64,000 nucleotides of DNA, from NCBI GenBank assembly GCA_963834905.1, contig CAWIDR010000023.1:15356-79355 (forward strand), written 5' to 3'. Below the pieces are notes generated by a model, which saw only the letters and a list, made by a program, of their open reading frames with translations, did not search any database and had not been told where the DNA came from. Source of the stretch: an uncultured Thermoleophilia bacterium (GTDB lineage: Bacteria > Actinomycetota > Thermoleophilia > UBA2241). A program made the translations under genes and the position numbers. The stretch's first letter is position 1, and each line of letters opens with the position of its first letter. This document shows positions 2,865 to 4,130 of this stretch, piece by piece.

Positions 2865-3700
2865 TAAGTATAGTAGCAGATAAGTTAGGTTTCTGGTTCT
2901 AGGCAACGGTATGCGCAAATGAAAGAGAGTAGAGTGTTACTATGTTTGTTTTTATAAGGAAGAGGTTCTATGTATAGATATAGATTAGGGTACTAGGTAT
3001 ATAGATTATAGAGTTTGTGAAGGTTGTGGAGTTGTGTAGAAGAGTGTATATTTAGCTAGTTAATATGGAGTAAGAAGGTAGAAGAAGAAAGGTGTTATTT
3101 AAATGAGATTGTGTAGAGGTATGGAAGGTGGTAGTAATGAGTAGAGATGTGTTAGTGGGACGCTTTGGTGCATAAGCAGAGGAAGATAGATGAGAGGTGG
3201 GATGGAGGTTGGGTGGGGTGTATGATGAGCGTGGATTTCACGGGTAAAATAGGAAGAGTGATGATGTGTATATTCTCTGACTAAGTGGGTGGTAAGGGGA
3301 TAGTTACGTTGATTATTTGGAAGAGTTCGTTTTGGGTATGGTTTGTATTAGTGGAGAATTTTTTATGTTTATGACAGGATTGTTTTAGGGAATGCTAGCG
3401 TTTAAGTTTGGGAAAGGTAAGGTTGTTCTGTTCGTGCGGAGGTTTTTGATTTTTGGTTCACATATAGTGGTATGGGAGGGAATTGGAAGGTGGAGCTTAA
3501 GTAAGTGGGTTTGATGGTATGTAGTTAAGGGTTTAGTGCAGACGCTCCGATATGTGGATAGAGGAAGGTGTAGCGGAACTGAGGTAGGTGGAAGATTTGT
3601 GGGGGAAGGAAGTGTTAGTAGTATAGGAGTTTCTGAAGGAGAGACAAGGTTAGGTGGTTTAAGTTATCTGTATAGGTTCTGAGAGTGAGGTTAGCGTAGT
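2865..3700. other. Strand-asymmetric C-depleted (A/G/T-only, about 3% C) non-coding-looking block
   Basis: No ORF of at least 60 aa in any of the six frames across about 800 bp. Cytosine is nearly absent on the + strand in an otherwise about 70% GC genome. The block sits where the 5' third of the upstream AOR paralog should be. Confidence 0.8.
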
Positions 3701-4130
3701 CTCGGTTACGATCCAACACCGCCAGAAGAGCTGTGCTGGGATGGCGAGCTCGGGCAGTGATGAGAGCAGAGAACCTGAAGGCGATAGTTATCAGTGGCGC
3801 GGGGGCAGTGCAGTCGCGGATCCGGCAGGCTTAGTAAAGGCGTGCAAGCGGGTACACCGGCTCGTACACGCAGGACCCAGGAGAACGCGTTGCGCGTGAA
3901 GATGAGACACACGAACATGCGCTGCGCGCACGCTTGCCCGTTCGGTTGCGCGACGCGCTCGCGCGATGTAGCACTGGGGCAGCGGAGGGGCGAAGAGAAG
4001 CGCAAGAACATCTCGGTCATGTGCGACGGCGAAGCCTACGAGAGCGGCTGGAACTGGTACCAGTACACACGACGGCGATAGAAGAACAGTACGCAGGCGA
4101 ACTGCGCACGAGCGCAGTAGAGGGATTGGC
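3701..4130. other. T-depleted purine-rich block overlying the recognisable but degraded AOR1 coding sequence
   Basis: Very few T on the + strand. Translation still shows AOR-like pieces (CAHACPFGC Cys motif, DELRLLIETSGSQGG resembling AOR DELGLDTISTGG) but no intact frame. Confidence 0.6.

Follow-up and report, generated by a model that had tools for sequence, protein, structure and literature searches.

The cytosine-depleted block at positions 2865–3700 of the DNA analysed here, together with the odd sequence on either side of it, is very probably a technical artefact of long-read sequencing and assembly and not a product of biology. The DNA, called the window below, is a stretch of 64,000 nt from a contig of an uncultured Thermoleophilia bacterium. 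The block occupies the place of ordinary coding sequence, with which it still aligns in register in related genomes; nearly every C has been lost and its replacement depends on its neighbour, the other three bases are preserved and the length is roughly kept. Further blocks of junk with other error spectra lie on the same contig, and the genes around them carry single-nucleotide indels. A first-pass annotation of the window had named an artefact as one option among several for this stretch, and it is this option that the evidence favours.

To establish what the locus looks like elsewhere, we relied on related genomes. A scan guided by the protein of the downstream of two aldehyde:ferredoxin oxidoreductase paralogues (AOR1 and AOR2) recovered four uncultured Thermoleophilia metagenome-assembled genomes (MAGs; L001–L004), all from the Microflora Danica project, with 83–93% protein identity to AOR2. 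An exact-protein look-up with EF-Tu and Lrp added three more relatives (L013–L015), of which L014 is contig_66185 of ENA ERZ25039539. These comparators are other strains or species, 85–94% identical in the region, and the same strain is not among them. All of these relatives are collinear with the window, L001, L002, L004 and L014 over its positions 1–12000, and four relatives carry the locus intact and collinear, with genes for a PfkB kinase, an aldolase, a 4Fe-4S ferredoxin and two AORs. The gene order in L014 reads LacI, PfkB kinase (371 aa), KDPG-type aldolase (211 aa), 4Fe-4S ferredoxin (155 aa), AOR (659 aa), AOR (618 aa), OYE-type flavin oxidoreductase, FAD-dependent oxidoreductase, Lrp/AsnC regulator, aminotransferase and arginase. 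The BLASTN alignment with L001 runs into the block itself (window 2885–8653 against L001 6709–12527). The seven related loci from Thermoleophilia that we compared add up to about 125 kb and contain no homopolymer of at least 15 nt and no 100-nt window below 40% GC.

The comparison yielded some observations on the relatives in their own right. L013 (ENA ERZ25039483 contig_4081, 608.6 kb) is 98.9% identical to window 41822–63032, the ribosomal operon region that holds rpoB, rpoC, S12, S7, EF-G, EF-Tu and S10. At 2885–3700 the closest relative is L001 (94% at non-C columns, against 80–84% for L002, L004 and L014), whereas at 4701–8653 it is L004 and L014 (93%, against 88.5% for L001); this switch points to either recombination of lineages or an assembly path pieced together from different strains. 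The group of ferredoxin, two tandem AOR paralogues, OYE flavin oxidoreductase and FAD oxidoreductase (window 2865–9724) is conserved across these MAGs (L001–L004 and L014), where it adjoins a sugar-acid kinase/aldolase pair.

The depletion of C is real in the sequence and far beyond chance. Over positions 12001–64000 the base frequencies are 0.14 for A, 0.34 for C, 0.35 for G and 0.17 for T (about 68% GC), and background windows of 836 nt average 34.2% C (s.d. 2.5%, minimum 29.5%). Of the 836 nt at positions 2865–3700, 44 are C (5.3%), which places this stretch about 11 s.d. under the background mean; inside the block GC is down to 35–45%, from 68%. The first-pass annotation was therefore right about this block, which it had described as containing almost only A, G and T. 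It had also reported that positions 3700–4130 contain almost only A, G and C, and here the comparison goes the other way: T makes up 13.7% of 3701–4130, as against 14.3% and 12.3% in the orthologues of this stretch from L001 and L014, and of the background windows of 430 nt, 25% are as low in T or lower, leaving no distinct T-depleted block. What is abnormal at 3701–4130 is A (24%, against 17–20% in the orthologues) and C (26%, against 33–34%); the loss of C seen in the block goes on here in weaker form. The proposed gradient of poly(A), no-C, no-T and normal sequence thus stands for its poly(A), C-poor and normal steps and falls for its no-T step; the actual course is near-total C loss followed by partial loss (mainly C to A), with a gradual return to normal sequence 3′ of the block.

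Table 1. Coordinates of the anomalous segments and of the genes beneath them, in window positions.
Feature	Start	End	Strand	Remarks
Left error ramp	1200	1943	+	Substitutions and deletions increasing towards the poly(A), within the PfkB kinase gene (minus strand, 5′ part)
Pure poly(A)	1944	2864	+	921 nt
C-depleted block	2865	3700	+	Native sequence in which about 86% of the C's are misread as T or A or dropped
4Fe-4S ferredoxin gene remnant	2865	3193	+	By alignment; Fer4 Pfam families on the L014 orthologue (155 aa)
AOR1, aldehyde:ferredoxin oxidoreductase family	3190	5202	+	659 aa in L014; 5′ end unreadable, frameshifted further on
Partial-error tail	3701	4700	+	C to A 7–20%, G to A 5–15%, A to G about 10% at conserved columns; scattered 1-nt deletions
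AOR2, downstream paralogue	5199	7057	+	618 aa in L014; AFOR_N and AFOR_C by Pfam
Second in-place junk block, T-rich	8653	9168	+	Inside the FAD-dependent oxidoreductase gene
Third junk block, T20 then AT-rich	9725	9808	+	Replaces about 80 nt of GC-rich sequence downstream of the oxidoreductase stop codon

Several genes lie beneath these segments (Table 1). The 5′ part of pfkB and the whole aldolase gene, both on the minus strand, are covered by the left ramp and the poly(A). The ferredoxin gene has its first ~125 nt under the poly(A) and its 3′ two thirds in the C-depleted block, and its TGA stop overlaps the AOR1 start codon as ATGA. That ATG falls at 3190, where the orthologue begins with MSGGTGGWAGRILRVDLT; AOR1 does therefore start inside the C-depleted block, as the first-pass annotation had proposed. 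The part of AOR1 that encodes the AFOR_N domain is in the block and unreadable there. Further on, the AOR fragments that had been noted from the translations are indeed recognisable, with a Pfam match to AFOR_C on window 4815–5186 (E = 1e-19); the intact L014 orthologue (2695–4671) matches both AFOR_N and AFOR_C. Because it runs through the partial-error tail with its 1-nt deletions, AOR1 appears as short ORFs spread over three frames. A second ATGA overlap, at 5199–5202, joins AOR1 to AOR2, which is split by a 1-nt insertion near 5227 (not in L014 or L001) and by a frameshift between 6054 and 6137. We saw nothing unusual in the underlying AOR and ferredoxin genes themselves. They belong to the family of AOR gene pairs with an upstream 4Fe-4S ferredoxin gene, and differ from intact AOR genes in that the window copy is unreadable at its 5′ end.

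The nature of the change becomes apparent when the block is read against its orthologues. In a multiple alignment (MAFFT), it matches them column by column, and we took as the expected base that on which L001, L002 and L004 agree. At 2865–3664, 224 columns are expected to be C: 104 read T, 58 read A, 9 read G, 21 are deleted and 32 keep the C. The other bases are nearly untouched over the same range (A kept at 94 of 99 columns, 95%; G at 210 of 224, 94%; T at 104 of 108, 96%), and the block matches L001 at 69.1% of all columns but at 94.2% of the non-C columns. The errors are strand-specific, with C gone and G kept at 94%. The base that replaces C depends on its 3′ neighbour: before G, 50 C's became A and 23 became T, and before A, C or T only 12 became A and 86 became T (Fisher odds ratio 15.6, p = 2e-14). 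None of the 16 trinucleotide contexts escapes the loss; most of the C's that survive are isolated and, as had been remarked, they are not restricted to CpG. The window also has 33 private deletions at 2865–3864, against at most three in each relative. Searches for terminal direct or inverted repeats bounding the block found none, and the only intact ORFs there are poly-Lys or poly-Phe frames read through the poly(A). The claim that existing coding DNA was converted in place is thereby upheld, with the block aligned column by column to the ferredoxin and AOR genes of four relatives and no bounding repeats. Of the two alignments suggested for checking it, that to AOR2 is uninformative, the paralogues sharing only a 130-nt patch at about 70–73%, and that to related genomes gives the register-true match, with C replaced by T or A or deleted.

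The poly(A) run is likewise set in the place of native sequence. Homology is anchored at window 1848 (L001 5551) on one side and at window 2885 (L001 6709) on the other, and the poly(A) with its unalignable edges (1849–2884, 1,036 nt) occupies the place of 1,157 nt in L001, so that about 10% of the length is lost. In L001 these 1,157 nt include the remainder of pfkB, the aldolase gene in full, the intergenic stretch and the 5′ end of the gene for the ferredoxin. Errors accumulate towards the run from both directions. On the left, where the ramp is the shorter one, they climb from about 1200, and steeply from 1650, in the spectrum at conserved columns; collinear homology can be traced to about 1848, and 1849–1943 is unalignable in local alignments judged against shuffled controls. 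MAFFT did place 1849–1943 beside the ferredoxin upstream region, a placement that we rejected, its score being no better than that of shuffled sequence. On the right, beyond the C-depleted block, the errors of the tail (rates in Table 1, seen over 3665–4664) fall to about 5–8% up to about 6400 and then to 2–3%, the level expected from real divergence.

Similar damage recurs twice within 6 kb. The second block (8653–9168) also aligns column by column with the relatives, 516 nt standing for about 563 nt, and it has a spectrum of its own, with C to T at 55%, G to T at 37%, A and T kept at 85–90% and about 10% deleted. The GC-rich stretch that the third block replaces may be a terminator hairpin in the relatives. 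Single-nucleotide indels private to the window split three genes into two ORFs each, namely AOR2 (near 5227), a class-III aminotransferase gene (at 11202) and an arginase gene (at 12813); such single-base indels are typical long-read consensus errors. Further single-base indels, with no counterpart in the aligned relatives, occur at 12352–12388 and 13363, and the OYE gene (7142–8186) also looks split.

Two other stretches of skewed composition were considered as further artefacts and rejected. The A-free stretch at 50427–50692 and the T-free stretch at 47082–47225 are genuine tandem repeats, coding on the minus strand and found in L013 too. The repeats are an Ala/Lys-rich coding repeat between the L3 and L4 ribosomal protein genes and a Gly-Pro-Arg repeat in a Pfam-less 259-aa gene between L22 and L16, and both differ in length in L013.

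Taken together, the relatives have normal homologous sequence at this locus, the errors are strand-asymmetric, k-mer-dependent and graded, and the same contig holds further blocks and indels. A replacement base that is chosen by the neighbour points to a basecaller that reads k-mers and not to a chemical reaction. Errors that stay in register, are strand-specific and biased to deletion, are graded over kilobases and recur elsewhere with another spectrum fit a decoder working on degraded signal. We infer that, between about 1200 and 6400, the consensus of the contig reproduces a degraded part of what was essentially a single long read, most likely an Oxford Nanopore one, and that the blocks at 8653–9168 and 9725–9808 probably have the same origin. 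Where the signal was worst, the basecaller would have emitted A only, for 921 nt; as the signal recovered, A, G and T would have been called correctly and nearly every C read as T or A according to its neighbour, or skipped; with later recovery a minority of C's would have been lost before calls became normal. Good reads may have been unalignable to so wrong a draft, in which case the assembler and neural polishing would have missed the core and only partly mended the edges.

A Nanopore origin is most likely because the relatives, from which alone the platform is judged, are Nanopore-only, because junk reads and glitches are known and because the window has long-read-type indels. All of the close relatives that we found are Flye-style 'contig_N' assemblies. 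For the Microflora Danica MAGs, Nanopore data were basecalled with Guppy (sup), assembled with Flye (--meta --nano-hq) and polished with a single round of Medaka, in a workflow that set its minimum read coverage higher, at 8, when datasets were large (PMC12313526). If the window came from that workflow, a minimum of 8 means that a single-read stretch would need either a local drop in coverage or reads that could not be aligned. Junk (low-complexity) reads and glitches are recognised failure modes of long reads (PMC6966772), and the sequence described here resembles the junk and glitches simulated by Badread (Wick & Holt, PMC6966772) in that low-complexity, homopolymer-rich sequence replaces normal sequence in several blocks within 10 kb, in an assembly with long-read-type 1-nt indels. 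It is unlike them in that the C-depleted block is non-random and in register, with A, G and T kept at about 95% and only C lost, in a neighbour-dependent way. In our literature search, no paper turned up that describes precisely this failure, specific to C and dependent on the neighbouring base.

We weighed four other explanations. In the first, an otherwise normal contig was rewritten in places once it had been assembled, whether by mishandling of a file, by a software fault or by a deliberate change in silico. In-place replacement with the length roughly kept would suit such a rewriting, as would the perfect purity of the poly(A), but we judge it improbable: substitution depends on the neighbouring base and is accompanied by 4–10% scattered deletion, ramps of error extend over kilobases on both sides, the spectra differ between blocks, and the surrounding genes have the 1-nt indels typical of long reads.

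The fault could also have lain in the sequenced molecule, if strand-specific, regionally graded damage or hypermodification of cytosine, beside a stall site or translocation block, had led a nanopore basecaller to misread C. Modified bases are a familiar cause of nanopore miscalls, and the loss of C from a strand on which 94% of G's are kept is what such a lesion might produce. We nonetheless consider this very unlikely, given that C is lost in every one of the 16 trinucleotide contexts, that the block at 8653–9168 loses G too, and that the poly(A) and the T20 junk speak for a failure of signal rather than a base-specific cause; moreover, we know of no region of a bacterial chromosome in which every C is modified on one strand. 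Were it true, the chemistry would be real in native soil-bacterial DNA, and the printed sequence would still be wrong.

Genuine strand-biased hypermutation of cytosine in vivo, in which an enzymatic deaminase or chemical deamination destroyed the genes, is extremely unlikely, and we reject it. The first-pass annotation had likened the block to bisulfite-like or cytosine deaminase activity, and the block does share with the products of bisulfite, APOBEC and DddA the depletion of one base on one strand, with C to T the commonest change (104 of 224). Fewer than half of the expected C's follow that route, however: C to A accounts for 26%, C to G for 4% and deletion for 9%, and a C before G tends to become A, not T. 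Deamination would turn C almost exclusively into T, would add no excess of deletions and would pick its targets by context (TpC for APOBEC3 and DddA, unmethylated C for bisulfite). Unlike the action of these agents, the loss shows no tie to TpC or to non-CpG sites, and context instead picks the replacement base. Loss is saturated at about 86% in every context, G to T changes appear in the nearby block at 8653–9168, a pure 921-nt homopolymer flanks the C-depleted block and stands in register for about 1.1 kb of native sequence, and the locus is intact in four relatives, all of which count against deamination.

Insertion of a foreign AT-rich or mobile element, for which the fall in GC from 68% to 35–45% could be cited, has a negligible probability, for the block is homologous column by column to ferredoxin and AOR orthologues (94% identity to L001 at non-C columns), adds no length (the window is about 10% shorter), lacks terminal direct or inverted repeats and has no intact ORF besides poly-Lys and poly-Phe, and the reading is therefore refuted.

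As a long-read artefact, the block is without biological significance or novelty, and its practical value lies in quality control. About 5 kb of the contig and two further blocks are wrong, and the genes for PfkB, the aldolase, the ferredoxin, AOR1 and the FAD oxidoreductase are destroyed or frameshifted in the printed sequence, so that gene callers would report poly-Lys and poly-Phe ORFs and pseudogenes at the locus. A possible screen for catalogues of long-read MAGs would look for a long homopolymer bordered by sequence from which one base is missing and which nonetheless aligns to orthologues at the other three. As for the organism, comparison with its relatives indicates that the real genome almost certainly carries, as they do, an intact cluster of pfkB, aldolase, ferredoxin, AOR1 and AOR2 genes.
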